Part shown: piece after piece, positions 6,377 through 31,510 of the stretch
How the letters are laid out: the number at the start of each line of letters is the position of its first letter
Position numbering within the stretch: the first letter of the stretch is position 1
The notes under the pieces: model-generated
Database searches by the model: none
Seen by the model: the letters and a program-made list of their open reading frames with translations, nothing else
What the model was told of the DNA's origin: nothing
Made by a program: the position numbers and the translations under genes
DNA from: Candidatus Omnitrophota bacterium
GTDB lineage: Bacteria > Omnitrophota > Gorgyraeia > Zapsychrales > Fredricksoniimonadaceae
Reading direction: 5' to 3'
Length of the DNA stretch: 61,339 bases
Assembly: GCA_903836515.1 (NCBI GenBank)
Contig: CAILQW010000061.1
Coordinates: 1 to 61,339 of the forward strand

Positions 6377-6379
6377 CCA

Positions 6380-7711: not shown

Positions 7712-7729
7712 CGTCCAGGCGGGAATATT

Positions 7730-9214: not shown

Positions 9215-9228
9215 GGAAAGGGGCCGGC

Positions 9229-9495: not shown

Positions 9496-9546
9496 AGAGG
9501 CGTTTCCCCGGCAGGGGATGCGGGCGATAACCAGAAAAGGGAAGGT

Positions 9547-9768: not shown

Positions 9769-9809
9769 GTTCTGCGGCCGGGGACAGGGCCTGCGGGAGG
9801 GCATGATAC

Positions 9810-10046
9810 ATGGGCGAGCGGTTCATCTATTGGAATGAAGGCCTGGTCTTTATAGGGCTCTTGACGTTCATCGTCGGTGTCCCTTGCCTGGCGGTGGCCA
9901 TTCTCGGGACCCGGCTTATCAACCATATCGGCCGTTATCCCACCAAAAGCGCACGGCTGCAGATGGGTATTTGCAGCCAGCTTCTGGTCATTGTGATCTT
10001 TTCCTTCTTTCTGTTGGCGTTATTTTTTCATGTTTTCTCAGATTAA
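9810..10046 (+). CDS. Second c-like subunit lacking the ion-binding Glu
   Basis: 78 aa, two TM helices, loop GRYP. Aligns without gaps to the preceding c subunit, with Val at the Glu position. Confidence 0.65.
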   Translation: MGERFIYWNEGLVFIGLLTFIVGVPCLAVAILGTRLINHIGRYPTKSARLQMGICSQLLVIVIFSFFLLALFFHVFSD

Positions 10047-10060
10047 CCAAGGAGTTTAAG

Positions 10061-10816: not shown

Positions 10817-10849
10817 CCATCCCTCCGCGCGGGGCGGGTAAGGTATTTT

Positions 10850-13175
<2,326 letters not shown>

Positions 13176-14899: not shown

Positions 14900-14904
14900 T
14901 CCCG

Positions 14905-16119
14905 GTGCCGGTATTTATTTATAAAGCCAAGAAAGAAGATGCCGTGACCGTGACGGGGGAAGTCACGGCGCGCGATGCCGACGAGGCCCTGGACATGGTG
15001 GTCCGCCAGGGCTTGCTGCCGGTCAGTGTCGATGAAAAGGGGGCCAATGCCCTTCCCGGTGCTGTCCGGGGGCAGGGGGTCAAGCCGCGCCAGATCCATG
15101 CCTTTACCCGTCAGCTGGGGAGCCTGCTCAGGTCGGGCGTTCCTCTGCTGAGGGCGCTTGAGGTCCTCGCACGCCAGATGCATGCGCCCCGTGACGCGCA
15201 TTTCGCGGGCATTGTCCGTGATGTGGCGCTCAATCTGCGCAACGGCCGTTCATTTTCAGCCTGTCTCGCCGAGCATCCCCGGGTGTTCGCGGATATTTAT
15301 GTCACCATGGTCCGCGCCGGTGAGGAAAGCGGGCGGTTGAAAGAAGTTCTCGAAAGCCTGGCCGTCTACGAACGCAAGCAGGATGAAATCGCCCGCCAGG
15401 TACGCGGCGCCCTGGTGTATCCGGCGTTCATGCTGATGGTGGGGGTGTGTACCGTTTTCTTTATCCTGAGTTTTGTGATGCCCAAGATCGCTGTTCTTTT
15501 TGAAGGTATGCGTGTCGCCCTGCCGTGGCCGACCCGGTTTGTCATGGGCTTAAGCCGGGCTGTCCGCGTGGCGTGGCCCGTATTGCTGGGCCTGGCCATG
15601 GCCGCGGCCGCGGGCGCGCGTTTTATGGCCCTGGCCCCGCAGATCCGCCGCAGGTTCATGGCGTTTGTGGCCGCGCTGCCCTTCATCCGTGAATTCACGG
15701 TCAAGACGGATATGGAACGTTTTGCCCGCACCCTGGCCCTGCTTTTGGGGAGCGGTGTCCCGATCCTCAAGGCCCTGGAGACGGCGGTGCCATCCCTGGC
15801 GTATGAGCCGTTGCGGCGGGAGCTTTCCCTTTGCCAGGAGCGTGTGGCGGGCGGCGCATCCCTGGGGGCGTGCCTGCGCGAATCGCCGCATATTCCCGAC
15901 ATCATGGTGCAGATCATCGCGATTGGCGAGGAAACCGGGGAACTGGCCGGGTCGCTTAAGGACGTTGCCGATACGTATGAACAGGAGATCGCCGAAACCA
16001 CCCGTTCGATGACGACGCTCCTGGAACCGCTCCTGATCCTGGCTGTGGGGCTTGTGGTGGGATTTATTGTCCTGGCGATGCTGCTGCCCATCTTCCGGAT
16101 GGACATGTTCGCTTCCTGA
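14905..16119 (+). CDS. gspF: T2SS/T4P inner-membrane platform protein (GspF/PilC)
   Basis: GTG start after GAGGA gives MPVFIYKAK. FTRQLGSLLRSGVPLLRAL, MVRAGEESG, IAIGEETGEL, three TM segments. Confidence 0.93.
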   Translation: MPVFIYKAKKEDAVTVTGEVTARDADEALDMVVRQGLLPVSVDEKGANALPGAVRGQGVKPRQIHAFTRQLGSLLRSGVPLLRALEVLARQMHAPRDAHFAGIVRDVALNLRNGRSFSACLAEHPRVFADIYVTMVRAGEESGRLKEVLESLAVYERKQDEIARQVRGALVYPAFMLMVGVCTVFFILSFVMPKIAVLFEGMRVALPWPTRFVMGLSRAVRVAWPVLLGLAMAAAAGARFMALAPQIRRRFMAFVAALPFIREFTVKTDMERFARTLALLLGSGVPILKALETAVPSLAYEPLRRELSLCQERVAGGASLGACLRESPHIPDIMVQIIAIGEETGELAGSLKDVADTYEQEIAETTRSMTTLLEPLLILAVGLVVGFIVLAMLLPIFRMDMFAS

Positions 16120-16217
16120 TTTATTATTTTTACACCCCGAATTTTTTCAGTTGTGGTATTTTTATTACATCAGCAGGGCGATGCCTTTGCTTGGGATAAC
16201 CATCAGGGAGGTTCGAT

Positions 16218-16643
16218 ATGATTGACGGCACAACCATGTTTCGGCGCCGGGGGTTCACGCTCATCGAGATCATGCTTGTGGTCATCATCATCGGGGCGCT
16301 GGCCGCGATGATCGTCCCGCGCCTGGCGGGGCGTTCCGAACAGGCCAAGGCCGCGGTCGCTAAAGCGGACCTGATGAACATCGCCACGGCGCTTAAGCTT
16401 TATGAGCTGGATAACGGGGGATTTCCTGCTACGGCCCAGGGGCTTGCTGCCTTGCGCGAACGACCTTCCGGTGCGCCCGTTCCCCGGAACTGGAACGGCC
16501 CTTACCTTGAAAAAGACCCTGTGGATCCGTGGGGGAATGCGTATATTTATGCCGCACCGGGAACGCACCGCCCGGATTATGACCTTTCATCCAGGGGCAA
16601 GGATGTGGCTTCAGCGGATGATGATGTTGTCAACTGGCAGTAG
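16218..16643 (+). CDS. gspG: Major pseudopilin GspG
   Basis: RBS GGAGG. G|FTLIEIMLVVIIIG prepilin motif, LKLYELDNGGFP, WNGPYL...DPWG. Confidence 0.93.
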   Translation: MIDGTTMFRRRGFTLIEIMLVVIIIGALAAMIVPRLAGRSEQAKAAVAKADLMNIATALKLYELDNGGFPATAQGLAALRERPSGAPVPRNWNGPYLEKDPVDPWGNAYIYAAPGTHRPDYDLSSRGKDVASADDDVVNWQ

Positions 16644-17064
16644 CCGTTCCCGGCGCCGGCAGGGCATCACCTTCATTGAAGTGATGCTGGCGGTGGTCAT
16701 CCTGTCGGGAGGGCTTGTGGCGCTTTACCGGTGTTTCTTTTCCGCCGTGGATTATCTGGACCGCCTGTCCACGCGGCTGTATGCGTTCAATCTCCTTGAA
16801 GGGCGTATGGCCGCGGTCGAGAAAGAGTTTCGTTCCCCGAAGGATTTTGATATCGGTCTGCTGGATGAAGAAGTCGTGATCAACAACCGTCCCGTGGCGT
16901 TCCATTATAATGTTAACCTGAAACCTGTGGGCACCCTCCTGTCGGTCTTTGAACTGGACATGGACCTTTCGTGGCAGGAGCGCGGGCGCCGTGTCACGCT
17001 TTCGCGCACGGCCTATGTTTCAGGTGTCACCGCCATATCCCCGGCGGAAGGGAAGGGAACCTGA
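16621..17064 (+). CDS. Minor pseudopilin, GspI-like
   Basis: RRQG|ITFIEVMLAVVIL prepilin motif. Start ambiguous among ATGs at 16618, 16621 and 16624. Confidence 0.78.
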   Translation: MMLSTGSSRSRRRQGITFIEVMLAVVILSGGLVALYRCFFSAVDYLDRLSTRLYAFNLLEGRMAAVEKEFRSPKDFDIGLLDEEVVINNRPVAFHYNVNLKPVGTLLSVFELDMDLSWQERGRRVTLSRTAYVSGVTAISPAEGKGT

Positions 17065-17651
17065 TGCGCCGGCGCGCCTTCACCTTTATCGAGATCATGC
17101 TGGTAGCGGCTCTTTTTGCCATTCTGTCGACCGCCATTTTTACGTGTCTGCTTAACGGGATCAGGCTCTCGGACCGGGCCCGCCAGATGATGTCCGGAGA
17201 GGATTCGCTTATTTTCTTCGACCGCATGGCCTCGGACCTGCGCAACACGTTTCATTTTGCCAACATCGATCTAGCCGGTGAAGAGGGGCGCATGGCATTC
17301 CCGTGCGTTGTCTGGACGCCGGCCGACCGTGTGAGCATGCGTGCCCCTGAAGGCGTTGTCGACCAGATCGGCCGTGTGGCGTATGATTATGATCCTGTGC
17401 GTGAAGCTGTGGTCCGCCGCCAGGCCAATTATTCCCAGGCGATGGCCGGGGGGTGGGGGGCTGACACGGTGCTGGTCAAGGGGGTCAAGGGGCTGCGCTT
17501 CCGTTATTTTCACGGCGTATCCGGCGAAGCGTCCACGCACCTGGAACCCACGGACGAGATACCTTCCGGTGTTGAGGTCGAACTCCATGTGATCCAGGCG
17601 GGAGAAGAACGGGTGCTCAAACGTTATATCGCTATTCCGGCGGGGGTGTAA
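17064..17651 (+). CDS. Minor pseudopilin, GspJ-like
   Basis: TGATG overlap with the upstream gene. MRRRA|FTFIEIMLVAAL, RMASDLRN. Confidence 0.8.
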   Translation: MRRRAFTFIEIMLVAALFAILSTAIFTCLLNGIRLSDRARQMMSGEDSLIFFDRMASDLRNTFHFANIDLAGEEGRMAFPCVVWTPADRVSMRAPEGVVDQIGRVAYDYDPVREAVVRRQANYSQAMAGGWGADTVLVKGVKGLRFRYFHGVSGEASTHLEPTDEIPSGVEVELHVIQAGEERVLKRYIAIPAGV

Positions 17652-18671
17652 ATGGCGGTCGTGAGGCGGCATGGTTTTATCCTGATCACCGCGTTATGGA
17701 CGCTGACCTTCTTGTCGGTTCTGGCGGTGATGCTGTTGGCCGGGGTCCGCCAGAGGATTGTTCTTTTTCAGCGCCTTGAGGACCGTGCCCGTGTGCAGGC
17801 TGCGGCAGAAGCCGGGGTCAAGAAGGCGGAGGCCATGACGCTTGATGCCCTGGAGGATCCCTCCGTGGCGGCCGTTGTGGTCAAACAGCGCCTGCACAAC
17901 AATCCTGCAGAATTCGCCGGCATGGATGTCGGAGGGGTTGCCGTCGAGGTTGTCCCTGATGCGCTGGATCCGGGCACGGGGGCCGTGGGCACGGCGTGGG
18001 GGGTGGCGGACGAGCAGTCAAAGATCAACTTAAACACGTCTTCCCGCGAGATCCTGGCCCGCCTGGTGACCGAGGCTCTCGGCTGGAACGGGGTCGAGGC
18101 ACGCGCCCTGGCTGATGCCATCGCCGACTGGCGGGATTACGGCCAGCATAGCACGGAGGGTTTTTTCAACGATGATTATTACAAAAGCCTCGAATTTCCT
18201 TATCCGATGAAAGATGCGGTGTTCGCACGGCCCGACGAGCTGCTGCTGGTGAAAGGGGTCAATGCAAAGATCTACGAAACATTACTGCCCTTCATCACCG
18301 TCTACGGGGACGGGCATGTCAATATCAATACAGCCTCGCGCCAGGCCCTTGTTGCCCTGGGACTTGATGTCCCGCTTGCCCAGAAGCTTGTGCGCTTCCG
18401 CCGGGGCGCAGACAACCTTGAGGCGACCGCCGATGATCATGTTTTTGCGCGGACATTCGATGTTGCCGCCGATATTGCCGGGAGTGTCAAGCTTGACCCG
18501 TCAGAGGTCCGCCAGATCGACGACCTTAACGCCCGCGACCTGTTGACGTCCGAGTCGGGTATTTATGCGTTTATCAGCCGTGTGCCCGCATCCGCCGGCG
18601 GGTACAAGCGGTCCATCGCGTGTGTTTTCAGTGTTTTTGAGAGCCGTGTCCTCTACTGGTATGAAAAATAA
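17652..18671 (+). CDS. gspK: Minor pseudopilin GspK
   Basis: RRHG|FILITALW (no E5), DEQSKINLNT, LLLVKGV, NINTAS. Confidence 0.88.
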   Translation: MAVVRRHGFILITALWTLTFLSVLAVMLLAGVRQRIVLFQRLEDRARVQAAAEAGVKKAEAMTLDALEDPSVAAVVVKQRLHNNPAEFAGMDVGGVAVEVVPDALDPGTGAVGTAWGVADEQSKINLNTSSREILARLVTEALGWNGVEARALADAIADWRDYGQHSTEGFFNDDYYKSLEFPYPMKDAVFARPDELLLVKGVNAKIYETLLPFITVYGDGHVNINTASRQALVALGLDVPLAQKLVRFRRGADNLEATADDHVFARTFDVAADIAGSVKLDPSEVRQIDDLNARDLLTSESGIYAFISRVPASAGGYKRSIACVFSVFESRVLYWYEK

Positions 18672-18682
18672 TCAATTTTATG

Positions 18683-18712
18683 TTGAAGCCCTTTAAAGAC
18701 ATAGTCTATAAT
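18683..18712 (+). promoter_or_regulatory. Putative sigma70 promoter internal to the T2SS cluster
   Basis: TTGAAG-18-TATAAT in the only AT-rich gap between gspK and the GspL-like gene. Confidence 0.55.
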
Positions 18713-18735
18713 GGTGCCATTAAAGATCGGATCTT

Positions 18736-20226
18736 ATGACGCTCAAATACCGCAAATACATAACAATCGCCATCACCCCGGCAAGCGTGAAGGTGGCTCA
18801 GGTCACCGCCGGAGGTGTGGTTGAGAAGCTTTCGCGCCGTGACATTTCAGGCGGTGCCGCGGATGCGGCCCTGCGCGATGCCCTGGCAGGGTTCCAGACC
18901 CGCAAGGCCGGCATCCTGTGCGTGATCCCGGGCGAAGTGGCCACCACCAAGTTCCTTGATGTCCCTTCGGTTGACAATGACGAAATAGATTCCATCCTCG
19001 GCCTGCAAGCGTCACGGCATACGCCCTTCACCAAGGATGAGATCCTTACCGGTTATGTCAAGATCCGTTCACCGCGTCCGAATTTCACAAGCGTCCTGTT
19101 GATCGTGGTCAAGCGACAGATCGTCAAGGATAAGATCGCCCTCATGCGCGCGGCAGGGCTTGATGTTGCCTCCGTGATATTTGTGCCCGAAGGTGTGGCC
19201 CGTTTTTATGCCCAGGCGCTTAACCTGCGCAAGGGGGGTTCCGCGGTCATCCTTGATATCGATGCGCAGAATACCAATTTCATCATCCTGGCCGAGGGGG
19301 CTGCGGTCATGGCGCGCAGCATTCCTGTTGGGATCGACCAGGTCAAGGCTGATCCGTCGGTTATTGCCCGGATCGTGGATGAAGCTAAAGCGTCGCTGGA
19401 AGCTTTTGAGCAGGAAGGCGGCACCCGTCCGACACGGCTCGTCGTGACATCGAATCATCCTTCCCTGGCTGGCCTGGAAGCGGCGCTGGCCGGGCCGTTG
19501 GCCATGAAACCGGAGTGCCTGCCGTATCAAAATTTTGTCAAGGGCTTTGCCGGGCTGAAGCAGCAGATTTCCAGGGATTTTATCGACGATTCTGCCCTGG
19601 ATGTCATTGCTGCGGGTGTGACGGCAGCGCGATGCGGGGCGGAACTCCTGCCCCAGGAGCTCAAAGACCAGCGCATGGTCGCGGAAAAGGGCGGGGAGAC
19701 CATGAAAGCGGGGATCTTTGTCCTGATGGCTTTTCTTTTTATCGGGGCGGCGCTCCTCAGCCGGGTTTATTTCGAGGATCTTTTCTTCAGGCAGAACCTG
19801 GTTGAAAAATACGCGGGCCAGAAAAAAGAGGTCGGGCTTCTCGAGAAGATGATCGTCAAGACGGGGCTCCTGCGCGATTACCTTCAGGCCAGGCAGATGC
19901 CCCTGGAGGCCATTACGGAACTTTACAGGATCATCCCCCAGGAGATATATCTTTCGGGTGTCACCATGGACGACAAGGGCGAGGTGTCCATCCAGGGCAT
20001 TTCCGAATCCATGTCGCGTGTTTTTGCCTTGGTCACGGCGCTGGAGGATTCGCCTCTTTTCGAGAATGTCAAGACCCGCTCCACCACGGCGAAAAAAGAA
20101 CGCGGCAAGGATGTGGCGGCCTTTGAGATCGTCCTGAAGCTTTCCGCGCCATCTGCCGCGGCTGCCGGTGTCCAAGACCTTAAAACCGCAGGGCAGGGCA
20201 ACCAAGGAGCAGGCCTTGATCAGTAA
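18736..20226 (+). CDS. GspL-like protein (PilM-PilN fusion architecture)
   Basis: Actin-like N-terminus (ITIAITPASVKVAQ; ILDIDAQNTN), single TM, PilN-like periplasmic part (IPQEIYLSGVT...VSIQG). Confidence 0.82.
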   Translation: MTLKYRKYITIAITPASVKVAQVTAGGVVEKLSRRDISGGAADAALRDALAGFQTRKAGILCVIPGEVATTKFLDVPSVDNDEIDSILGLQASRHTPFTKDEILTGYVKIRSPRPNFTSVLLIVVKRQIVKDKIALMRAAGLDVASVIFVPEGVARFYAQALNLRKGGSAVILDIDAQNTNFIILAEGAAVMARSIPVGIDQVKADPSVIARIVDEAKASLEAFEQEGGTRPTRLVVTSNHPSLAGLEAALAGPLAMKPECLPYQNFVKGFAGLKQQISRDFIDDSALDVIAAGVTAARCGAELLPQELKDQRMVAEKGGETMKAGIFVLMAFLFIGAALLSRVYFEDLFFRQNLVEKYAGQKKEVGLLEKMIVKTGLLRDYLQARQMPLEAITELYRIIPQEIYLSGVTMDDKGEVSIQGISESMSRVFALVTALEDSPLFENVKTRSTTAKKERGKDVAAFEIVLKLSAPSAAAAGVQDLKTAGQGNQGAGLDQ

Positions 20227-20842
20227 ATTTATTTCCGGGCTTTCCGCCAATGAGCGCAAGATTCTTATCGTGGCGTCCTTGTTCGTCCTGTTTGCGCTTT
20301 TCGACAGGCTTCTGGTCGGGCCATCGTTTAACCGCATGAAAGAGCTTGACGAGAGTATTGCCAAGGAAGAGGATACGATCCGCCATAACCTGAGGTTCCT
20401 CGATTATAAAAAACGCATTGTGGGTGAAGCGGCCGCCTTCCGTGATTTTTATACGCAGGAGGTCCGCAGCGAGGACGAGGTCATCGCCGATTTCCTGAAG
20501 AAAATGGAACTGCTGGCATCGCAGGCTCAGGTGACCCTCTCGAAGATATCTCCGGCGGGGCAGGACGCCCAGAAAGATTATGTCAAGTATTTCGTGACCA
20601 TGGATTGTTCCGGGAAACTGGAGAGTATCACCAGCCTTGTTTACGCGATCAACAATGCGAAGGCATTGATCAAGGTCGAGAAAATGAGCCTTTCCAGCAA
20701 TGCCCGCAGCGCGGATACGGTCCAGGCGAGCCTTACGGTATCAAAGATGATCGTGGGTGCGGATCCTTCTGTCGAGGCCAAGGATCTTGTCCGGGTGAAG
20801 GAGTCCGACAAGCCCGAGGCCAAGACGGATACAGGTAAATGA
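20216..20842 (+). CDS. GspM/PilO-like protein
   Basis: TTG start after AAGGAG. LSANERKILI-TM-coiled coil-ferredoxin-like segment. Confidence 0.75.
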   Translation: MISKFISGLSANERKILIVASLFVLFALFDRLLVGPSFNRMKELDESIAKEEDTIRHNLRFLDYKKRIVGEAAAFRDFYTQEVRSEDEVIADFLKKMELLASQAQVTLSKISPAGQDAQKDYVKYFVTMDCSGKLESITSLVYAINNAKALIKVEKMSLSSNARSADTVQASLTVSKMIVGADPSVEAKDLVRVKESDKPEAKTDTGK

Positions 20843-21633
20843 TCCCCTTCTGGCACAGGACGCTGGTCCCGTGCATGCTTATTTCTCTTCTATCCGCAGC
20901 GCAGGTTTCTGCCGCCCCCGTGAGCCGGGAGCAGTTGTTCCAGCTCGCCACCATTGCGGCCGGAGACCATCAGTTTGAACGTGCCATTGAACTTTTCCAG
21001 AAGATCATCGAAGTGGATCCCAAGTTTGCCCCGGCTTATAACGGGATCGGGCTTGTCCATCAGTCGGATGAAAATGGTTCGCCGCTGGAAGCGCTGCGTT
21101 ATTTCAGGCTTGCCGTTGACATTGACCCTGAATATGCCGAAGGCTGGAACAATCTGGGAAGGGCTTATTATACCCAGGCCCGTTTTGTGAACGCGGAACA
21201 GGCGTTCTTGACATCCTTGCGCCTTAAGCCCGGGCAGACAGATATCGAGTTCGCCCTGGCGTGGGACTATCTTTTGGGGCAGTCGCGCCCCGATGAGGCG
21301 ATTACCTATTTTGAGAAAGTCAGGGCCCGCCAGGATAATCCCATGATCTATTACGGGATCGGGCTGGCGAGCCTCCTGCAGGGCAACCGCATGAGGGTCA
21401 TGGAGGCTGTCACGCAGCTGCGCCATCATCAGAGGGAAGAACAGGCCCTGGGGCTTGAGAAAATGTTGAAGGAGAATGTCCTGATCAATTCAAAGCCGGG
21501 GACTCCGCTGGTGACAGGTGCGCCGCAGGCGGAATCATTATTCGATCATCAACTCAGGGAACTTAACGCGTCGGGGTATACGGTTCCCGGCAAAGAAGGC
21601 ATCAAGGTCAGATTAAAGGGGCCCTTGCTGTGA
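20839..21633 (+). CDS. Exported TPR protein
   Basis: Signal peptide. TPR motifs (DPKFAPAYNGIG, DPEYAEGWNNLGRAY). Confidence 0.85.
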   Translation: MIPFWHRTLVPCMLISLLSAAQVSAAPVSREQLFQLATIAAGDHQFERAIELFQKIIEVDPKFAPAYNGIGLVHQSDENGSPLEALRYFRLAVDIDPEYAEGWNNLGRAYYTQARFVNAEQAFLTSLRLKPGQTDIEFALAWDYLLGQSRPDEAITYFEKVRARQDNPMIYYGIGLASLLQGNRMRVMEAVTQLRHHQREEQALGLEKMLKENVLINSKPGTPLVTGAPQAESLFDHQLRELNASGYTVPGKEGIKVRLKGPLL

Positions 21634-22769
21634 CAAATAAATTTACGGTCTGTGTTGCGCTGGGGACACGTCCCGAGGCCATCAAGCTGGCACCGGTGAT
21701 CCGCGCGCTGCGCACGCTTCCCGGGGTGACGGTCAGGGTCCTGGTGACGGGCCAGCATCGTGGCATGATGGATGAGGCGCTTGACGTGTTTGGCATCACG
21801 CCGGATTATGACCTGGATATCATGCGCAAAGGCCAGGCGCTTTTTGATGTGACGGCCCGCATCCTTAAGGGGATGCCGCGCGTGCTGGCGCAGGAAACCG
21901 TTGACCTGATGGTGGTTCAGGGAGATACCGCGACCACCTTTGCCTGCGCCCTGGCCGCGTACTATCACCGTATCCCGGTAGCGCATGTCGAGGCCGGCCT
22001 GCGTACGGGCGACAAGTACCGCCCGTTTCCCGAGGAGGGCAACCGGCGGCTGACCGGCGTGTTGGCTGACCTTCATTTTCCGCCCACCCCGCAGGCAGAA
22101 CGTGCGCTGCTGCAGGAAGGCGTGTCCCGCCAGAGCGTCCTGATGACCGGGAATACCGTGGTGGATGCGCTTCGGCTGGCCGGAGGACAGGACAGGGCCT
22201 TCACAGATCCTTTACTGCGGGAGTTGGCGGCAAGCCGGCGCAAGATTGTTCTGGCGACACTTCACCGCCGGGAAAGTTTTGGCGATGGCCTGCGTCAGGT
22301 GCTCTTGGCCCTGCGGGATATCAGCATGCTGCCGGGAGTGGATGTGGTTTATCCCGTGCACCTTAATCCGCAGGTCCGCTCTCAGGTGAAAGAGACGCTT
22401 TCTGGCGGGCGGGTTCATCTCCTGGAGCCTTTGGCGTATGACCAGTTTGTCGTGCTCATGAAGAAGGCGCGTGTGATCGTGACGGACTCGGGCGGCATTC
22501 AGGAAGAAGCCTGTGCCCTCAGGAAGCCTGTGATCATCACGCGTGAGATGACCGAGCGGCCCGAGGCCGTTGCCGCCGGGTTTGCCCAGCTTTTGGGGTT
22601 CGACCGAAAGCGTATTGCCGCGGCCGTGCAGCGCCTGGTGCAGGATGATGCCTGGTACCGTCAATGTACGTGCCACAAGAATCCTTTTGGAGACGGCAAG
22701 GCATCGGCCCGTATTGCCCGTGCCTGCCTGCGTTATCTCCAGGCCCATCAACCGCGAGGCAAGAGATGA
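21630..22769 (+). CDS. wecB: UDP-N-acetylglucosamine 2-epimerase (non-hydrolysing)
   Basis: GTRPEAIK, TGQH, VQGDT, HVEAGLRT, FPEE.NR, TDSGGIQEEA. Confidence 0.95.
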   Translation: MTNKFTVCVALGTRPEAIKLAPVIRALRTLPGVTVRVLVTGQHRGMMDEALDVFGITPDYDLDIMRKGQALFDVTARILKGMPRVLAQETVDLMVVQGDTATTFACALAAYYHRIPVAHVEAGLRTGDKYRPFPEEGNRRLTGVLADLHFPPTPQAERALLQEGVSRQSVLMTGNTVVDALRLAGGQDRAFTDPLLRELAASRRKIVLATLHRRESFGDGLRQVLLALRDISMLPGVDVVYPVHLNPQVRSQVKETLSGGRVHLLEPLAYDQFVVLMKKARVIVTDSGGIQEEACALRKPVIITREMTERPEAVAAGFAQLLGFDRKRIAAAVQRLVQDDAWYRQCTCHKNPFGDGKASARIARACLRYLQAHQPRGKR

Positions 22770-23461
22770 TATCTGTTGTAGTTCCTGCTTATAACGAAGA
22801 AGAGGTCATCGGCCGTTTTCTGGAGGCCTGCGTCCGGGATATCCGCCGGGATGTGCCGCTGGAGATCGTGGTGGTCAATGATGGCAGCCGTGATGCCACG
22901 CGGGATCTGGTGCAAGGGTTCACGGCACAATATCCCTTTATCCGCCTGGTCAACCATGAGGTCAACCGCGGCCTGGGCAAGGCGTTGGAGACAGGGATTG
23001 CCGCGGCCCGGGGCGAGGTCATTGTCACCATGGATGCGGACCTGACCCATCCTCCCGCCATGATCCGGGAGCTTGCCGCCGGGCTCAAGGACGCGGACAT
23101 TTGCATCGCGTCGCGTTATGTCAAAGGCGGCGGGATGCAGGATGTGCCGGCCTGGCGCATTGGGGTCAGCCGCATGGCCAATCTTGTCTTTGATCTGATC
23201 TTCTGGACGCATATCCACGACCTTTCTTCGGGGTTCAAGGCTTACCGCGCGGAGCACCTCAAGAAGGCGCCGATTATATCGAACGGGTTTGAATGCCAGA
23301 TGGAGATCATGCTGTATTTCATCAAGCACCATTTGCGTTCCCGTGAGATCCCGCTCATGCTCAAGAACCGTCAGTTCGGCACCTCCAAGTTCCAGGTCGT
23401 GCGGATGGGGATGAAGTATGTGCGCAGCCTGGCGCGTTTTCTGGCATACCGCTGGTCATGA
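22766..23461 (+). CDS. GT2 polyprenol-phosphate glycosyltransferase (DPM1-like)
   Basis: MISVVVPAYNE, VVNDGSRD, NRGLG, MDADLTHPP, IASRYVKGG. Confidence 0.9.
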   Translation: MISVVVPAYNEEEVIGRFLEACVRDIRRDVPLEIVVVNDGSRDATRDLVQGFTAQYPFIRLVNHEVNRGLGKALETGIAAARGEVIVTMDADLTHPPAMIRELAAGLKDADICIASRYVKGGGMQDVPAWRIGVSRMANLVFDLIFWTHIHDLSSGFKAYRAEHLKKAPIISNGFECQMEIMLYFIKHHLRSREIPLMLKNRQFGTSKFQVVRMGMKYVRSLARFLAYRWS

Positions 23462-23462
23462 T

Positions 23463-25115
23463 ATGAACTCTCTGGTCTGGCGATGGCTTACAGCGGGATA
23501 CGTTCAAGCGGGGCTTGTTTCCCTCGGTATTTTGCTGCGCACCATCCATTATCTCGAGAACCGTTCCTTCTGGCAGGATGAGATATGCCTGGCGTTGAGC
23601 ATTGTCAACCGTTCCTTCACGGCAATAGTCCACAACGTCCTTTTGTTCCCTGATTTTGCCCAGGCCCCTCTCTTATTCCAGCTTGTCGAGAAATCTGCTG
23701 TGGTTGTGCTGGGCAATACCGAGATGGCGCTGCGGCTGTTCCCTTTCCTGGCGGGTGTGGCCGCACTTTTTCTGGCGCGTCGTTTTTTTAACCGCCTCCT
23801 GGGCCCTGCCGCGGCGACCCTGGCGCTTGCTCTTTTTGTCCTGGCGGAACCGTTGGTTTATTTTGCAGCGGAACTGAAGCCTTACGGGATAGACGTCTTT
23901 GCCGTATTCCTTGTTTATGAGATGTTCTTCGCCCTGAAGGATCGCTGGACGCCGGGCCGGCTTGTGATATTTATGGCGGGCGGAGCCGTGGTGATATGGC
24001 TGTCCAATGCCATGCTCTTCATTCTAGGCGGGGCCGGGCTTGTGCTGGGGCTGGATCAGCTGCGGCGGCGAGAATGGCACAGGTGCCTGGGACTGGGTAT
24101 TGCCTACGGTGTCTGGCTCATCAGTTTTCTGCTGTTGTACAAGTTGTCTTTAAGCGGGATGCTCAATCCCGAGTTGTTGAAGAACTGGCGTCTGGCCGGA
24201 GGTTTTTCTCCGGATCCGCTTTGGACATGGGGTTGGCTGGTCTGGATGGGGAAGGCGTGCCTTGCGTTGTTCCGTGTGCCGCTGGGTCTGGCGTGGCCGT
24301 ATCTTATGGCGGTGTTTTTTGCCGCAGGGTGCTGGTCATTCTTCCGCCGGGACAGGTTTCTTTTGTGGCTGTTGACAGTGCCCCTGGGGCTGGCGCTTCT
24401 GGCCGGGGTGCTCGACAAGTATCCTTTCTTTGAGCGGCTTGTTATTTTCCTCGTTCCCGGGATGCTGGTGCTTCTGGCGGCGGGGATGCAGGCTGCCGCG
24501 TCAGCCGTGACTGGACGCGGCCAGGCATGGGCCGCCGGAGTCATCATCGCGGCGGTGTTCTGGTTCCCGGTGTCTGCCGCGGCATGGCATGCGGTCCATC
24601 CCCGGGGGAATGAGGATAACCGCGCGGCGATGCGTTATATGGCCGACCATTACCGTCCCGGCGATCTGGTGGCCTTGAGTTCCCAGGCGCAATATCCTTT
24701 CTGGTATTACGGCGAGCGTTTCGGCCTTAACAGCCGTCTGGTGACAAGTCCTGTAGGGACATCGGGCGAGAGGGCCACGTTGGTGATCCAGTTGTTTCCC
24801 AACATGGTGACCCAGGCCGGACGGAATATGCTGGCGTTGCGCCAGACCTTAAGCATTTATGATGCCCGGGGTTTTTATCGTTCGTTCAGGCTGGCGGCCC
24901 GTTCCAGCACCCCGATGTTCGTCCCGGCGGATGCGCCCGCGGCCCTGCAGGGCATGGGGCGGGTGTGGGTCTTTTTGTCCCATCACAATGATGCGCATTT
25001 TCCCGGATTTGTGAACCAGGTTTTTGCGCGGGCCGGAGAGCGGCTGGAATACCTTGAACGCCCGGGTGTGTGCGTGGCCCTTTATAATATCCCTCCTGAT
25101 GACAGAAAGAACTGA
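23463..25115 (+). CDS. GT-C fold membrane glycosyltransferase (PMT/ArnT-like)
   Basis: About 11-13 TM segments. First loop RSFWQDE, LRLFP, ELKPYG.D. Confidence 0.8.
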   Translation: MNSLVWRWLTAGYVQAGLVSLGILLRTIHYLENRSFWQDEICLALSIVNRSFTAIVHNVLLFPDFAQAPLLFQLVEKSAVVVLGNTEMALRLFPFLAGVAALFLARRFFNRLLGPAAATLALALFVLAEPLVYFAAELKPYGIDVFAVFLVYEMFFALKDRWTPGRLVIFMAGGAVVIWLSNAMLFILGGAGLVLGLDQLRRREWHRCLGLGIAYGVWLISFLLLYKLSLSGMLNPELLKNWRLAGGFSPDPLWTWGWLVWMGKACLALFRVPLGLAWPYLMAVFFAAGCWSFFRRDRFLLWLLTVPLGLALLAGVLDKYPFFERLVIFLVPGMLVLLAAGMQAAASAVTGRGQAWAAGVIIAAVFWFPVSAAAWHAVHPRGNEDNRAAMRYMADHYRPGDLVALSSQAQYPFWYYGERFGLNSRLVTSPVGTSGERATLVIQLFPNMVTQAGRNMLALRQTLSIYDARGFYRSFRLAARSSTPMFVPADAPAALQGMGRVWVFLSHHNDAHFPGFVNQVFARAGERLEYLERPGVCVALYNIPPDDRKN

Positions 25116-25116
25116 T

Positions 25117-25458: not shown

Positions 25459-25480
25459 AGGAATTTCTGTTGGCTATCGC

Positions 25481-25509: not shown

Positions 25510-25530
25510 GTCTTACAGGAGGGTGGAACA

Positions 25531-26766: not shown

Positions 26767-29262
26767 TCAGAATGACGCGGGCCACTTGACTTTGTACACA
26801 AATATTTTGGTGCGGCCTGTCAGGTCTTGTTCTTTGGCAAAGGGCTTGAAATAGTCGAGGCCTTTGCCGTCAAAGTAATACAATTTCATGATGATCGCGC
26901 CGGCCAGCATCTGATCCATCAAAATGCAGTGCGGGGTGTTCTGCTGGTCGCGAAAAATAACCGCCGCGTAACCGAGTGTGGCGTTGGTAAGCGGCTTTTC
27001 CACCACATGGCCCGAGGCTTCATCAAGATAGACCACAGCCGCCGGGATCCCGTGCCCGAATTTAGGCGAGTTGACCACAACCGACATCTCCGCGGTATCA
27101 AGCATCACGCCCTGGTCAAAGAGGATCCTGGACCCGTTGCGCCCCGCCGGGGAAAGGGTTTCGCTTTGCCGCAGCTGCCCGCCCACAAGGCTCCAGAGAA
27201 AATCAATATAGCCGCGGGAACTGCGGGAGGGGATCTTCTTTAACTGTGCGGGATCGGCGTTGAGGTGCTCGATCCTGGCGAAATCCCATTTGCCCACATA
27301 ACCCAAAAGGACATTGCCTTCCACGATCTCGTTGTAAATAAGGAGATAGGAAGGCGGCGGGGCGGCGTGGGTCAGTTTGAGCAGGGCATCGGCGTGAGCG
27401 GGGCCAAGGATGCCGTTTAAGTAACGGGCGGCTTGTGCGCGTGAGAGAGGTGTGATCTGTTCCAACAGCGGCACAGCCCGTGACAGGGGCCAGCCCAGAC
27501 CTTGGAGGAATTCACAGGCCTGGTTGGAGCTGGTGTTGAGCATACGCAGGAACCCCAGGGCCTCCTGTTCGCTGCGGCTTAAGTAAATCCTGGTCAGCCA
27601 ATAAGCCTGTTCGCCTTTGATCGAGGCGCCGTCAAAGGTCACCTCACGCCGTGCGATGGCCTTGACAAAGTGCCCGGGGGCCCACCAGGTGTCGATCACG
27701 CTGTTGGCCGGGGTTTTGTCGTGCAGGGCGGTGAGGGCGCGATCCCAGGCTGAATTAAAGATGGGGTGAAGGAACGAGGCGATGTTCCGGTTTGTCGCGG
27801 CGATGGGGATCACGGATACCACAAGGAAGGCCGCGATCAGTCCTCCCGTGCTTGTTGAGACCGGGAGTTTCAACCGCACGGCCCATGATGGGCGCGCCTG
27901 CCAGAGTTGTTCCAGGCCAAGGGCAAAGGCTAAAGCGAGCGGGGTCACCAGAAGCAGGGCGAAGCGTTCCGCACTCAAGGCGAGGACAAATGTCACGGCG
28001 GTAAAGAGCGCCAAAAGCAGGATATGATCCGGCGGGCTTTTACGTTTGATGACTGCGTCACGGCCATACATGAAAAACGCCGCGGCAGCGCCCCAGAAAA
28101 CAATGGGCCCACCCGTCAGCATGATAGATTCGGCGGTGGTGCCATGACGGAGTTCACCCACAACAATGAAAAGATCCGGCCAGTCCTTGATGCGCGGCGC
28201 AATGAATTTGCCAAGTTCCGCGCAGGCCAGCGGGATAAGCGCAAGGAACTGGTTTATGCCGATCATGATGGTCAGGCAACCTAAGGCCATAGCGCCTGTG
28301 ATGAGGAGGATGAGGGCCAGATTGGCGCGCCGGGGTTCCTTGAAGATGAAGGCACGCGTTGTCATGAGCGCGAGCGCGGCCATGGTGATGCCCCAGGAAA
28401 AACTCCACCCTGTCCAGAACCGTGCAAAGAGGGCGAAGGAAAGCCCGGCGAGGAGGCTCCAGATGATCGTTTTCCGGGTGTTGTCCAAAGACCTCAGGGC
28501 AAAGGCCGTGAGTCCCAGGTTGAGGGCAGGGAAAAGAACGCTGTAAGAATCGTTGTCGTACCAGGCGTAGGTGCTGCGCTGGAGGTAAATGGGCGCCAGG
28601 GTAAAAAAGATCGACGCGGTGAACGCGGCCGGCCATTGACAGCCCAGCGCGCGGCAGGCCAGCAGGAACGCGGCCAGAACAAACGGGAACAGGACAAGCG
28701 GCGTGAAGGCGACCCCTCGCATCACATCGATCGAGGGATCCAGGAATCTTGCGGCCTTGTAGACCCAGGCGCCGATGTAGGGGTGCCATGTCTGCGGCTC
28801 CCAGTAGCCCAGGGGAGCCAGCATCTTGTTGTTAAAATATTGACTGCCGTTCACCTTGGAACTTACGTCGCCTTGTTCCAGGATGTTCTGGGTCAGATCC
28901 AGAAAGTAATAGGAGTCCGATTCTTGGAGGTAGTGACGGGTTTCGCCGGTCTTTTGAAGCAGCTGCAGGCCGACTTTGTCAAAGGTGTCGCGCAGTTTGG
29001 CGTTTTGGGTACGGACGACCTGATTGAACTGTTCCTGGATGATGCGCTGGCGCTGGGCGGGCGGCATGTCGGGGTAGCGCCGGGCGATCTGTTCGGTGAT
29101 GCTGGCGCGCACTTTGGCCAAGACGAGCATGGTTGCCGATTCATAGGAATCTGCCGCGACATTGTGGGCCAAAGGATAGAGCCGGAAATAAAGTCCGATC
29201 ACCAGCGTGATGAGCCCGCCCATGATCCACGGCACAAGGGGAAGCCAATTGTTTTTTTTCAT
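26767..29262 (-). CDS. STT3/AglB/PglB-family oligosaccharyltransferase with variant WWAPG motif
   Basis: ESDSYY, RSTYAWYDND, VGEL, AERF, about 13 TM segments, soluble domain with TWWAPG and FDGAS. Start placed at MKKNN after the upstream stop. Confidence 0.85.
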   Translation of the reverse strand: MKKNNWLPLVPWIMGGLITLVIGLYFRLYPLAHNVAADSYESATMLVLAKVRASITEQIARRYPDMPPAQRQRIIQEQFNQVVRTQNAKLRDTFDKVGLQLLQKTGETRHYLQESDSYYFLDLTQNILEQGDVSSKVNGSQYFNNKMLAPLGYWEPQTWHPYIGAWVYKAARFLDPSIDVMRGVAFTPLVLFPFVLAAFLLACRALGCQWPAAFTASIFFTLAPIYLQRSTYAWYDNDSYSVLFPALNLGLTAFALRSLDNTRKTIIWSLLAGLSFALFARFWTGWSFSWGITMAALALMTTRAFIFKEPRRANLALILLITGAMALGCLTIMIGINQFLALIPLACAELGKFIAPRIKDWPDLFIVVGELRHGTTAESIMLTGGPIVFWGAAAAFFMYGRDAVIKRKSPPDHILLLALFTAVTFVLALSAERFALLLVTPLALAFALGLEQLWQARPSWAVRLKLPVSTSTGGLIAAFLVVSVIPIAATNRNIASFLHPIFNSAWDRALTALHDKTPANSVIDTWWAPGHFVKAIARREVTFDGASIKGEQAYWLTRIYLSRSEQEALGFLRMLNTSSNQACEFLQGLGWPLSRAVPLLEQITPLSRAQAARYLNGILGPAHADALLKLTHAAPPPSYLLIYNEIVEGNVLLGYVGKWDFARIEHLNADPAQLKKIPSRSSRGYIDFLWSLVGGQLRQSETLSPAGRNGSRILFDQGVMLDTAEMSVVVNSPKFGHGIPAAVVYLDEASGHVVEKPLTNATLGYAAVIFRDQQNTPHCILMDQMLAGAIIMKLYYFDGKGLDYFKPFAKEQDLTGRTKIFVYKVKWPASF

Positions 29263-29267: not shown

Positions 29268-30059
29268 TTACTGTATCGGTTTTGCGGCGTCTGCGCAAGG
29301 CATAAGGGGCGTTTTCCTGCGCGAGGCATGCAGCATCAGGAATATCTTGAGAAGATCCAGGCCGCTGGTGACAAAGTCTTTCAAACGGAGTTTGGAGCCT
29401 TTCTTATCGATCCAGATCCGCAGGGGATATTCCATGCAGATGGTGTCTACCGGCGGAAAGCCTTGATGTTGAGTGATAATAAAACGCGCCAGGATCTCGA
29501 CGTCGAATATCCAGTGTGTGGTAAAAGGGGCGGCAAAAATCTGCTTGAGCCTGGTGTTGACACGGAAGAGCTTGGCCCCGCATTGGGTGTCATAAACGCG
29601 CAAGCCCAGGATCATGGAGGTGGCTGTGGCAAAGGCGCGTCCGGCATAGTGCCGCACAGGGTTGCGTTCGATCTTGTAGCCCAGCAAGGCGACGCGCGAG
29701 GCCATGGCGATGTCTTTATGGCCTTGGGTGAGGGCGTTTTCAAGTTCCAGCATGCTTGCGATGGGCGCGGCCAGATCTGCGTCGAGAAACCCGATCAGGG
29801 CGGGGTTCATGGTAAAGCCTTTGAGAAATCCCAGGCGGACCGCTTCCGCCTTGCCGCTGTTATGCGGCAGGTGCAACACGCTGATGTGTCCAGGGGCCTT
29901 GGCCTGAAGATCATCGAGCATCGCGGATGTTTTGTCCGTGGAGCCGTCGTCCACGAAAAGAAGATGAATCGCGGCGTGTTGTCCGGCAAAAGCCAAAAAC
30001 ACGTCAGGCATCAGGCGCTCGGCTTCGTTGTAACAGGGGATGACAATGAGGATGCGCAT
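29268..30059 (-). CDS. GT2 polyprenol-phosphate glycosyltransferase (ALG5/DPG synthase-like)
   Basis: IVIPCYNEAERL, FVDDGSTD, NSGKAEAVRLG, FLDADLA, DTQCGAKLF, WIFDVEIL. Confidence 0.9.
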   Translation of the reverse strand: MRILIVIPCYNEAERLMPDVFLAFAGQHAAIHLLFVDDGSTDKTSAMLDDLQAKAPGHISVLHLPHNSGKAEAVRLGFLKGFTMNPALIGFLDADLAAPIASMLELENALTQGHKDIAMASRVALLGYKIERNPVRHYAGRAFATATSMILGLRVYDTQCGAKLFRVNTRLKQIFAAPFTTHWIFDVEILARFIITQHQGFPPVDTICMEYPLRIWIDKKGSKLRLKDFVTSGLDLLKIFLMLHASRRKTPLMPCADAAKPIQ

Positions 30060-31510
30060 CAGGGCTGGTTCTTGGCTTCTTTGGCTATTTTACTGAAGAC
30101 GGGATAGAGCTTTTCCCAGATGAGCCTGGCCTGGGTGCAGTTATCCCCGTGGTAGCGCATCAGGTAGTAACGTGACAAGAGCATGTGGTAATGGTAGCGG
30201 TAGAGGAAATTCATCCACGCCTGGTCGGTTTTGGCATGGCTGGCTTCTTCCCGTGTCCAGACGCTGAACCAGCCGCGGCTATCCTTGGCGTAATCGTAGA
30301 AATACTGCCGCAGAAAAACACAGGCGAAGGCGCCGGCCAGGGCCAGGGCGAGGAGGCCGGACCATGGCCATTTTTCGGTTGTCTTGTGCAGGATGATGCC
30401 CGTGGCCAGCATGGCGAAAGGCCAGGCGCCGATGGAGCGCAGCGGGTGAGGGTTTTCGATCCATACGAGCGTGGCCGGGAAAATGCCGATGATGATATTG
30501 ATCCCCAGGAAGCCAAGGAATAGAAGTGTTGCTGTGGCAGCGGCCGGTTTGCGCTGGATAAAGCGCAACGCCATCCAGCCAAGCCCTGCCACAAGCGCGG
30601 TCACGTCGATCCAGCTCAGCATGCCCTGGTGCCCGGTCGAAAGGGTAAGATTTTTGGGAGTTCCTTTAAAGAATAGATAATCAGGGTGCAGGTGGGCGAT
30701 AAAATTCTGGATGACGATTTTAAAAAGCTCCAGCATTGTTCCGGAACTGCCGATGTCGCGCAAGTGCTCAGGGTTGGTGATGGCGACTTCCTTAAATCGT
30801 GCGGACAAAGAGGGGTGGGTGAGATAAAACCATACCAGGGGAGTGCTGGTGAGGAGAAACGCCGCGGCTAAGGCGACGAGGTGGCGGATGCGCCATTGGC
30901 GCCAGATAAGGCCGTAACACGTCATGATGAGAATGAAAAGCGGGACCTGCAGCCTGGCGGTTGGATACGAATAGGCCGCGCCCGACAAGAGCATCCCGGC
31001 CAGGATGAAGTGCCAGGATCGTTTGGCTTTCAGGCAGAAAAAAAGTCCCCAGATCAGGAAGGGGAGCATGAGCAAGGATTCCCATGAGACGCGCGAGATA
31101 GACCATATCCAGGGCGATAGGCTGGCCGCCAAAAGGATCCATAGGCCGCAGCGCAGGCCGGCGAGGTAGTACCCGATGGCAAAAAGTCCCAGCAAGCCGA
31201 TGACAACGGCAAAAGCCGTGAATCCGCGCAATGCGCCTTGGGAAAAGCCAAAGGCTTTGACCCAGAGCATGCCCGGGTACATATAGGTCGGCGGGGAGGG
31301 CGTGGCAAAGCTGTTTTCGCCGAAAAGCGGATAATGGGTATCGCCCAGCGGAGAGGCGCCTTCCTGGGCCATACAGCTTAAGGTGACACCGGCCGTCAAT
31401 TCATCGATCTGAAACCCGTCGGGCACATCACCCAGGCCGACAAAACGCAGCACATTGACACTCAGGATCAGGCTGATGAGGAGGGCAGGAAGAATGTATT
31501 TCTTTAACAT
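30059..31510 (-). CDS. GT-C fold membrane glycosyltransferase (ArnT/PMT-like)
   Basis: First loop VPDGFQIDE, multiple TM segments, SRVSWES, YSYPTAR. Confidence 0.8.
   Translation of the reverse strand: MLKKYILPALLISLILSVNVLRFVGLGDVPDGFQIDELTAGVTLSCMAQEGASPLGDTHYPLFGENSFATPSPPTYMYPGMLWVKAFGFSQGALRGFTAFAVVIGLLGLFAIGYYLAGLRCGLWILLAASLSPWIWSISRVSWESLLMLPFLIWGLFFCLKAKRSWHFILAGMLLSGAAYSYPTARLQVPLFILIMTCYGLIWRQWRIRHLVALAAAFLLTSTPLVWFYLTHPSLSARFKEVAITNPEHLRDIGSSGTMLELFKIVIQNFIAHLHPDYLFFKGTPKNLTLSTGHQGMLSWIDVTALVAGLGWMALRFIQRKPAAATATLLFLGFLGINIIIGIFPATLVWIENPHPLRSIGAWPFAMLATGIILHKTTEKWPWSGLLALALAGAFACVFLRQYFYDYAKDSRGWFSVWTREEASHAKTDQAWMNFLYRYHYHMLLSRYYLMRYHGDNCTQARLIWEKLYPVFSKIAKEAKNQP

Follow-up and report, generated by a model that had tools for sequence, protein, structure and literature searches.

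A contig of 61,339 nucleotides from a Candidatus Omnitrophota bacterium (GenBank assembly GCA_903836515.1, contig CAILQW010000061.1; the whole stretch is termed the window here) encodes a protein related to STT3, PglB and AglB, the catalytic proteins of oligosaccharyltransferases (OSTs), in which the signature WWD motif is replaced by WWAPG. In canonical OSTs, the Asp of this motif hydrogen-bonds, and the Trp indoles also help to bind, the hydroxyl of the Ser or Thr at position +2 of the N-x-S/T sequon (catalytic residue roles and numbering are according to PMC7226087). The protein retains the fold and the catalytic residues of these enzymes, and it belongs to a large clade, termed WWxPG here, from which the Asp is absent throughout. 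It is very probably an active enzyme with non-classical acceptor recognition, as judged from sequence, and it is likely tied in function to the locus in which it lies. This locus encodes a giant repeat protein (the fibre), a putative membrane anchor, an F1-like ATPase and a machine resembling type II secretion systems (T2SS) and type 4 pili (T4P). The combined proposition, that the enzyme is active, recognises acceptors in a non-classical way and serves this locus specifically, has about even chances, and a more tentative and rather doubtful proposal is that its acceptor is the Asn of the Asn-Trp (NW) repeat unit, which would offer at least 144 sites in the window alone.

The open reading frame (ORF) of the STT3-like protein translates without stops into 831 residues. 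Its ATG at 29262 agrees with the N-termini of homologues, the stop codon of the upstream glycosyltransferase gene lies 6 nucleotides before it, and no other STT3 homologue is present in the genome (2.0 Mb, 96% complete). The TWWAPG motif claimed for the soluble domain by the original prediction, which had been made from the letters of the sequence, is confirmed in both translation and DNA (T525 to F532), with the codons tgg tgg gcc ccc ggg cac for WWAPGH. The Ala codon could in principle stem from faulty sequencing or assembly of a gene for a normal WWD enzyme, GCC being one substitution from GAC, or the gene could be a dead or decaying relic. However, the next codon specifies Pro rather than the canonical Tyr or Phe, a difference of two substitutions; the protein is identical on 13 contigs according to its database record; and every close relative, and indeed each of 148 clade representatives, likewise lacks the Asp. 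These three observations rule out an error at the Ala codon and mark WWAPG as genuine. The catalytic residues do not vary, the reading frame is unbroken, conservation is high over all 831 residues, and the periplasmic domain is under strong purifying conservation, which argues against decay. An error or a relic is thus very improbable.

The clade is evident at several levels of divergence. All 45 full-length relatives at 37 to 66% identity, most of them from Candidatus Omnitrophota, read WW[S/P/A]PGHF, and a 29%-identical outgroup reads WWDDG. An exhaustive profile search returned 1,263 clusters (50% identity) at E<=1e-30, and the best 148 were tallied for the motif; together with the outgroup, these form an alignment of 149 rows. 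At position 528, the 148 representatives carry Pro (103), Ser (26), Cys (7), Ala (6), Thr (4), Gly (1) or Asn (1), and none carries Asp. The following Pro (P529) is present in 144 of the 149 rows, outgroup included, G530 is present in all 149, and H/Y531 and F532 are fixed, so that the clade consensus is WW[P>S>C>A>T]-P-G-[H/Y]-F. In a phylogeny computed without the motif columns (FastTree was the only tree method used), all x-P-G sequences fall into one clade with 98% local support and the WWD types lie on separate branches outside it; the question raised by the original prediction, whether the altered motif defines a clade, is thereby answered in the affirmative. Pro is the common and probably the ancestral state of position 528, and the Ala of the window is a recent change from Ser (its sister sequences carry S, S and T). 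Ala as the meaningful change was therefore rejected, and the emphasis first placed on this residue is not upheld, since the position varies among P, S, C, A and T. Because position 528 is unconstrained while the following Pro is fixed, the acceptor pocket, judging from the alignment, is rebuilt rather than retuned by one substitution.

Both types of enzyme were surveyed in 301 genomes sampled across Omnitrophota. An STT3 homologue is found in 105 of them, comprising 74 with the WWxPG type, 27 with only the canonical SWWD[FY]G[DN/H]WF type and 4 that are unclassified. A scan of GTDB species genomes additionally located 147 loci, nearly all labelled Omnitrophota. Some genomes (G024, G044 and G276) hold the WWxPG and WWD types together, as expected for functionally distinct paralogues. 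Within the WWxPG clade there are also two odd copies, L055 (G060:C68:60193-62634) and L048 (G036:C1:54982-57438), one of which reads S-W-F-D-P-G-Y-F, with the Asp back and the second Trp replaced by Phe, and the other S-S-W-S-P-G-Y-L. In either genome, the odd gene is a second copy in addition to a standard WWPPGYF gene.

Assignment of the protein to the OST fold is supported by profile and structure comparisons. The N-terminal domain of STT3 (Pfam PF02516) matches with E=1.4e-16, at 61 bits against a cut-off of 24.5. The archaeal STT3 and PglB models of NCBIfam match below threshold only, so the protein is a distant relative. A single-sequence phmmer search of the PDB gave only a marginal match to P. 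furiosus AglB, and a family profile was required for alignment to solved enzymes. An AlphaFold2 (AF2) model built on 22 homologues has a mean predicted local distance difference test score (pLDDT) of 85 and a predicted TM-score of 0.80. When this model was compared with the PDB by Foldseek, the 18 best matches were all PglB, AglB or STT3 (E=3e-18 to 5e-9), headed by the C. lari PglB structures 6gxc, 5ogl and 3rce (E=3e-18 to 4e-16; target-normalised TM-score 0.65). Other glycosyltransferases of the GT-C fold (AftA, DPY19, PMT and ArnT) appeared only at E>=1e-5. The model further predicts a periplasmic domain of about 300 residues with a helical insert at residues 565 to 635.

The family profile aligns motif by motif with Archaeoglobus fulgidus AglB (AfAglB; E=4.5e-29), and human STT3A was aligned as well. 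The consensus sWWppGhF falls on SWWDYGHW of AglB (residues 549 to 556) and on SWWDYGYQ of STT3A, with WWppGh paired with WWDYGH (AfAglB residues 550 to 555) and WWDYGY, respectively; A528 thus sits at the position of the WWD Asp. Relative to WWD(Y/W)G, the criterion for GT66, the family of these enzymes, the Asp is gone and both Trp and the Gly are retained. The claim that the metal and phosphate motifs are intact is supported for ESDSYY (114 to 119), R229...Y235-D236-N237-D238, V368-G369-E370 and E432-R433-F434, and it extends to the whole clade. The residues D116, D236, D238, E370 and R433 are essentially invariant among the 149 cluster representatives and in 71 genome copies. D116, the counterpart of PglB D56 in external loop 1 (EL1), is Asp in all 142 ungapped rows and pairs with the Asp of GGNDPWYY in AglB (D47) and of HEFDPYFNY in STT3A (D49). 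D236 and D238 are found in 144 and 145 of the 149 rows, the remainder being gaps except for one Arg at 236, and they pair with D161 and H163 of AglB (GFNDHHIWE) and with the D-N-E of STT3A (GSYDNEGIA). E370 and R433 are invariant in all 149 rows, and R433 pairs with the Arg of GQNRFAYY in AglB, which we take to be R426. Homology to the solved OSTs fades about 40 residues past the WW motif, and NEIVEGN (644 to 650) and GKWDF (657 to 661) are candidate stretches for the DK/MxxI motif, which contacts the +2 residue. Residues that distinguish the clade besides the motif itself are I/V533, A/G546 and T631-H632.

Loss of the peptide-reading Asp might indicate that the acceptor is not a protein but a lipid, a lipopolysaccharide core or a polysaccharide, as for ArnT and AftA/Emb. 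The weaker fold matches to AftA, ArnT, DPY19 and PMT would fit such a role, as would the adjoining genes for a PMT_2/ArnT-like GT-C protein and a family 2 glycosyltransferase (GT2) and the nearby LpxB gene. OST structures nevertheless match far better than other GT-C structures (E=1e-18 vs 1e-5), and conservation is strong in both Trp, in the Gly after them and throughout the periplasmic domain. Moreover, the invariant E370 is the presumed counterpart of the Glu in external loop 5 (EL5) that contacts the acceptor carboxamide in PglB (PMC7226087). A non-protein acceptor is accordingly improbable, and the enzyme appears to descend from, and to work like, the GT66 OSTs. It is not classed as a canonical N-x-S/T OST because it lacks one defining feature, WWD. 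Altered acceptor specificity, as originally proposed, is a fair inference from the loss of the Asp that hydrogen-bonds the +2 hydroxyl; with this Asp gone and its position unconstrained, classical reading of N-x-S/T is unlikely.

Among known systems, the best structural match is PglB of Campylobacter lari and C. jejuni (GT66; 3RCE, 5OGL and 6GXC), likewise a single-subunit bacterial enzyme. The WWxPG enzyme has in common with it the Asp of EL1, the D-x-D and the Arg that binds phosphate, and presumably also a T-x-x-E-type Glu. The two differ in that they are only 13 to 14% identical and that the WWxPG enzyme has WWxPG for WWDYG, no recognizable MxxI and a larger periplasmic domain; in addition, the PglB gene is part of the pgl glycan-assembly operon, whereas the WWxPG gene lies beside the fibre/ATPase/pilus locus. 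The best profile match among solved structures is AglB-L of Archaeoglobus fulgidus (3WAJ, 5GMY and 7E9S), which has a His after the Gly in common with the WWxPG enzyme but retains the Asp and the DK motif and reads N-x-S/T; its TM-scores against the WWxPG model are 0.44 to 0.47. AglB also glycosylates S-layer proteins. The canonical SWWD[FY]G[DN]WF homologues of Omnitrophota are like the WWxPG enzymes in phylum, length, architecture and catalytic residues, at 21 to 25% identity, but they retain the WWD and form separate branches. At least one of them, the canonical homologue of genome G235, also adjoins a T2SS-like operon. Another WWD-type gene (G149) is found among housekeeping genes.

The likely functional tie between enzyme and locus is supported by the distribution of the NW repeat. 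Of the 301 genomes, 65 have homologues of the repeat, namely 61 of the 74 with a WWxPG enzyme but only 4 of the 227 others (odds ratio 262, Fisher p=1.3e-45); the four are 1 of the 27 WWD-only genomes and 3 of approximately 200 with neither type. A Cochran-Mantel-Haenszel test stratified by family, over the 194 of the 301 genomes that had a family label, gave p=2e-14. The association is not just phylogenetic, since the two traits track each other within nine families of mixed state, including f18 (repeat in 2/2 genomes with the enzyme vs 0/27 without), f8 (3/3 vs 0/6), f7 (1/1 vs 0/9) and f48 (24/34 vs 1/21). Repeat detection depends on assembly quality, as repeat genes are easily lost in fragmented assemblies; the WWxPG genomes without a detected repeat are mostly fragmented or incomplete, and three of them still have the anchor gene.

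Synteny points in the same direction. In 23 genomes, the enzyme and repeat genes lie 15 to 28 kb apart on one contig, at enzyme identities down to 28%, and wherever the anchor was compared the gene order is constant: fibre, 443-residue anchor, an intervening block and then the STT3-like gene. In the window, this block encodes the F1-like ATPase, GspE and GspF, pseudopilins, GspK, PilMN, PilO and a tetratricopeptide repeat (TPR) protein. In one genome (G194), the STT3-like gene is present twice, and an anchor gene lies about 14 kb from each copy; one of the two loci also has a repeat gene. Full-length homologues of the anchor, as read from the match list, are almost confined to genomes with both the repeat and a WWxPG enzyme. 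The predicted link between enzyme and repeat is thus borne out at the comparative level, by a co-occurrence that survives family stratification and by conserved synteny; the acceptor role read into that link would be a further step.

Conserved gene order could alternatively be all that underlies the proximity to the fibre, if the enzyme performed general N-glycosylation of the envelope on many targets, with a relaxed or different sequon. Such a role would suit the sole STT3 homologue of a genome. Furthermore, the order of the PIF1 helicase, response regulator, LpxB and GFO/IDH oxidoreductase genes around the STT3-like gene is kept in another locus (L003), which demonstrates that unrelated genes can stay syntenic here. 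A housekeeping gene would not, however, be expected to be missing from about three quarters of the genomes of the phylum. The patchy distribution of the enzyme within families also matches that of the fibre and anchor, and both STT3-like copies of G194 lie beside anchor genes. General envelope glycosylation therefore has little likelihood, and dedication of the enzyme to this locus is the preferred reading.

Within the locus, the fibre is the most conspicuous candidate acceptor. Its repeat, described by the original prediction as neighbouring, is real, with 144 units in which N-W is invariant, but it is about 20 kb and some 17 genes away from the STT3-like gene rather than adjacent. The unit consists of 13 residues, G-[VI]-N-W-x-D-[ILM]-x-x-[LM]-[ST]-x-x, and the spacing is exactly 13 residues in 143 of 143 intervals. 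At position +2 from the Asn, the most frequent residues are Ser (69), Asp (21), Ala (11), Gln (9), Glu (8), Asn (6), Gly (6) and Thr (5). Another contig of the genome (C5:59797-67560, forward strand) carries an open ORF of 2588 residues, with a head of about 250 residues and 177 NW units at the contig end. This ORF and that of the window are probably halves of one gene split in assembly, encoding more than 4,700 residues and at least 321 units. The C5 ORF begins with a Sec-type signal peptide (MRINKRLKF...LAATYAHA/Q), and the repeat protein, of which it is the probable N-terminal half, would therefore be exported and pass the side of the membrane that holds OST active sites. The fibre is the leading candidate because it is exported, is co-present with the enzyme and offers an invariant Asn every 13 residues to an enzyme without the Asp that demands a particular +2 residue.

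Two further features of the fibre sequence were observed. Within the first approximately 90 residues of the C5 ORF, the signal peptide is directly followed by three canonical sequons, N-A-T, N-G-T and N-G-S, of which N-A-T and N-G-T lie in short G-G-A-x-N-G-x-[AT]-T-A-T repeats. Their presence is unexpected here, as the WWD Asp is missing from the sole STT3 homologue of the genome. Pfam PF25533 (Lysostaphin_N), a region that itself consists of 13-residue tandem repeats, matches residues 1465 to 1559 of the NW repeat with E=7e-63, which may reflect homology or no more than a common period and composition.

In the proposed mechanism, the GT-C enzyme would face the periplasm and bind a sugar or glycan linked to polyprenyl-(di)phosphate through R433 and a divalent metal, the latter held by D116, D236/D238 and E370. 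The sugar would be passed to a nucleophile lying in the groove of the two conserved Trp. Loss of the Asp would abolish or weaken recognition of the +2 hydroxyl, and the fixed Pro-Gly-His/Tyr-Phe, together with I/V533, A/G546 and T631-H632, may form a new, more hydrophobic acceptor site. The neighbouring pairs of a Dpm1-like GT2 and a PMT_2-like GT-C protein could lengthen or supplement the glycan with sugars taken from lipid monophosphates on that face of the membrane, much as AglD and AglS work in Haloferax. The enzyme would most likely glycosylate an exported part of the machine formed by fibre, anchor, F1-like ATPase and T2SS/T4P-like components. In its fullest form, the proposal is that WWxPG enzymes constitute a fourth functional branch of STT3, with N-glycosylation independent of a +2 Ser or Thr and a sequon G-[VI]-N-W at the start of a helix, which would decorate the fibre (more than 300 units) along its whole length; this is possible but, on balance, unlikely.

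Several observations weigh against the fibre as the substrate of a non-classical enzyme. Ser or Thr occupies the +2 position in 51% of the units in the window, so that many of them would have been within reach of a canonical enzyme. The fibre, anchor and STT3-like gene share one distribution, and since the locus is passed on as a unit, co-occurrence does not tell whether the fibre, the anchor, the pseudopilins or the cargo is the target. The pilus operon and the STT3-like gene are transcribed convergently, not as one unit. As for the catalytic residues, E370 is likely, from motif context and invariance, the equivalent of the TIXE Glu, although the AglB profile alignment pairs it with a Glu about 12 residues past the TIAE stretch of the presumed E360.

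The conservation of the repeat unit has, in addition, an explanation of its own. Helix starts are commonly marked by a capping box and a hydrophobic staple. An AF2 model of 20 repeat units places a regular helix of 9 residues, from the Trp to position 12, in each unit; because its pLDDT is 42, the secondary-structure period alone was used. In this model, the unit fits a helix start with the Asn as N-cap, the Asp at N3 (capping box), Val/Ile at N' and Ile/Leu/Met at N4 (hydrophobic staple), and Gly at the preceding C-cap. The +2 position was also considered as the N-cap and was dropped, as the model puts the Asn itself there. A capping box and a staple would suffice to conserve the unit, which thus needs no glycosylation. 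The originally noted invariance of N-W with a variable +2 residue is consequently no evidence for a sequon, for G-[VI]-N-W-x-D-[ILM] also reads as a helix-start signal. Glycosylation of the Asn Nd2 would not necessarily break a cap made by Od1, so that capping neither supports nor excludes modification.

The most substantial alternative acceptors lie in the same locus. The enzyme may glycosylate the pseudopilins, the anchor or the cargo of the T2SS/T4P-like machine instead of the NW fibre, which is unlikely though far from negligible. STT3-like genes end the pilus operon in distant relatives. In genome G235 (L198, G235:C1:275000-294000, 819-10524), a SWWDYGDWF homologue is codirectional with, and directly follows, an operon of secretin, GspE, GspF and five pseudopilins, and these pseudopilins contain 8 N-x-S/T sequons in all, 1 to 2 each, mostly near their C-termini. 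Archaeal AglB glycosylates pilins and archaellins (PMC5131992). As the homologue beside the pilus operon of G235 is a canonical WWD type, the link between STT3 and pili may be older than the motif change and may point to pseudopilins, another consideration that counts against the fibre. It suggests pilin glycosylation at ordinary sequons as the ancestral job, a lead from one genome per type. In the window, however, the pseudopilins (0 to 1 N-x-S/T sites) and the anchor have 0 to 2 sites and share no conspicuous motif, and the switch from WWD to WWxPG goes along with possession of an NW fibre and anchor rather than of pili. To our knowledge, pili are near-universal in Omnitrophota. Type-4a pilus genes are reported from most genomes of most classes (PMC10066038). 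N-W as a shared sequon was found in none of the scanned genes of the locus, a scan outside which the GspG-like pseudopilin lay. Dedication to this locus with the fibre as leading candidate thus remains the preferred reading.

Two observations accompany this comparison. The STT3 homologue of G235 is followed by GT2, GT9 and radical-SAM genes. The GspG-like major pseudopilin of the window (16218-16643, forward strand) has an internal R-N-W-N-G, and its last residues, D-D-D-V-V-N-W-Q, include the one V-N-W of the locus outside the fibre; D-I-x-N-W is presumably the usual C-terminal ending of GspG, and the C-terminal V-N-W-Q was read as a coincidence.

Features of the window and the basis of their assignment, in order of position.
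Feature	Coordinates	Strand	Basis
Giant protein (fibre), C-terminal 2124 residues with 144 phased NW units; candidate acceptor	2..6376	+	Repeat count
443-residue anchor with signal-like N-terminus and C-terminal transmembrane helix	6380..7711	+	Sequence
F1-like ATPase genes: alpha-like, OSCP/delta-like, gamma, beta-like	7730..13175	+	Pfam
T2SS/T4P-like genes: GspE, GspF, pseudopilins, GspK, PilM-N, PilO/GspM-like, and TPR protein	13178..21633	+	Pfam
UDP-GlcNAc 2-epimerase, GT2 and 565-residue PMT_2-like GT-C protein	21630..25115	+	Between pilus operon and STT3-like gene
PIN-domain (PIN_3) toxin-like gene, isolated between glycosylation genes and STT3-like gene	25752-26153	+	
Glycosyltransferase of STT3/PglB/AglB fold, WWxPG clade, 831 residues	26767..29262	-	Pfam, AF2 model, Foldseek
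T525-W-W-A528-P-G-H-F532, replacing WWDYG	27667..27690	-	DNA read and profile alignment
R433 (E/Q-R-F), lipid-phosphate Arg equivalent (PglB R375)	27964..27966	-	Conservation and profile alignment
E370 in (T/V)-V-G-E, presumed TIXE/SVSE Glu on EL5 (PglB E319)	28153..28155	-	Motif and invariance
D236-N-D238, second metal-binding D-x-D	28549..28557	-	Conservation and profile alignment
D116 in ESDSYY, EL1 catalytic Asp equivalent	28915..28917	-	Conservation and profile alignment
GT2 resembling polyprenyl-phosphate sugar synthases, cotranscribed upstream of STT3-like gene	29268..30059	-	Pfam Glycos_transf_2, E=3.5e-20
483-residue multi-pass membrane protein, PMT_2/ArnT-like GT-C	30059..31510	-	Distant homologues
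Second giant ORF, 2783 residues	45509-53860	+	No significant Pfam domain

The STT3-like gene closes a unit of three tightly coupled genes, in which it is preceded by the genes for the 483-residue membrane protein and the GT2; the start of the GT2 gene overlaps the stop of the 483-residue gene. The 483-residue protein and the 565-residue protein on the opposite strand have no direct match in Pfam, NCBIfam or the PDB, and homologues of the former at 32 to 33% identity carry PF13231. A conserved operon of GT-C, GT2 and STT3 was considered and rejected because the same GT-C and GT2 pair sits elsewhere in a relative (L200:7001-9220), a few kb from a serine recombinase gene and accompanied by another GT2 and a methyltransferase. 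For the same reason, the pair is taken as an insertion here, and its arrangement is suggestive of a glycosylation cassette that can move. The spot that the pair occupies here is taken in G249, a genome of the same genus, by a gene for a secreted S1 (Trypsin_2) protease; of 23 genomes from this order, 20, G249 included, have the protease gene immediately upstream of the one for the STT3-like protein. The protease was nonetheless rejected as an obligatory partner, as it is adjacent neither in the window nor in 25 genomes of other orders or classes; its best homologue in the source genome is on contig C63.

The genes between the pilus operon and the STT3-like gene also have counterparts elsewhere. 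The 565-residue GT-C protein, the GT2 and the UDP-GlcNAc 2-epimerase have orthologues that neighbour the STT3-like gene of L003, and the first of the three is 36% identical to its L003 counterpart, itself a weak PMT_2 match. Small overlapping ORFs at 25024-25549 may encode an antitoxin of the PIN gene. Elsewhere in the window, the second giant ORF is preceded by an SNF2 helicase gene and a SWIM gene and followed by genes for a porin and a phosphate-type ABC transporter.

Loci of this kind have been described in Omnitrophota, where 'symbiotic' loci of F-type ATPase and type-4a pilus genes (Seymour et al. 2023, PMC10066038) and giant ORFs near T2SS-like genes (West-Roberts et al. 2023, bioRxiv 10.1101/2023.11.21.568195) are published. 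The former are defined by non-respiratory F1-like ATPase genes within 10 kb of type-4 pilus or T2SS-like genes (PMC10066038). The window shows this co-location, with the F1-like ATPase genes (two ATP-synt_ab, OSCP and gamma domains) placed directly before GspE and GspF (T2SSE and T2SSF domains) and a giant ORF beside them. The text of Seymour et al. does not contain 'glycosylation', 'oligosaccharyl' or 'Stt3', and that of West-Roberts et al. does not contain 'STT3'; an STT3-like enzyme associated with the locus, and its link to the fibre, are therefore new relative to both papers. No description of WWD-less STT3 homologues or of N-glycosylation in Omnitrophota was found in the published literature. 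What is new here is the quantitative co-occurrence and synteny of the WWxPG enzyme with the NW fibre, and the system may represent an undescribed kind of protein glycosylation.

A large natural clade that keeps the catalytic core without the Asp amounts to an experiment, already set up by evolution, on site selection by OSTs, and it is a possible source of glycoengineering enzymes with new site rules. The co-inherited fibre provides a concrete, clonable candidate substrate. For the biology of the phylum, the enzyme would bring glycosylation into a machine that has been proposed as the basis of the host-dependent way of life in Omnitrophota. If the fibre is indeed the acceptor, these ultra-small predatory or epibiotic bacteria would carry a decorated fibre thought to act with the F1-like ATPase and pilus-like machine in attachment or motility.

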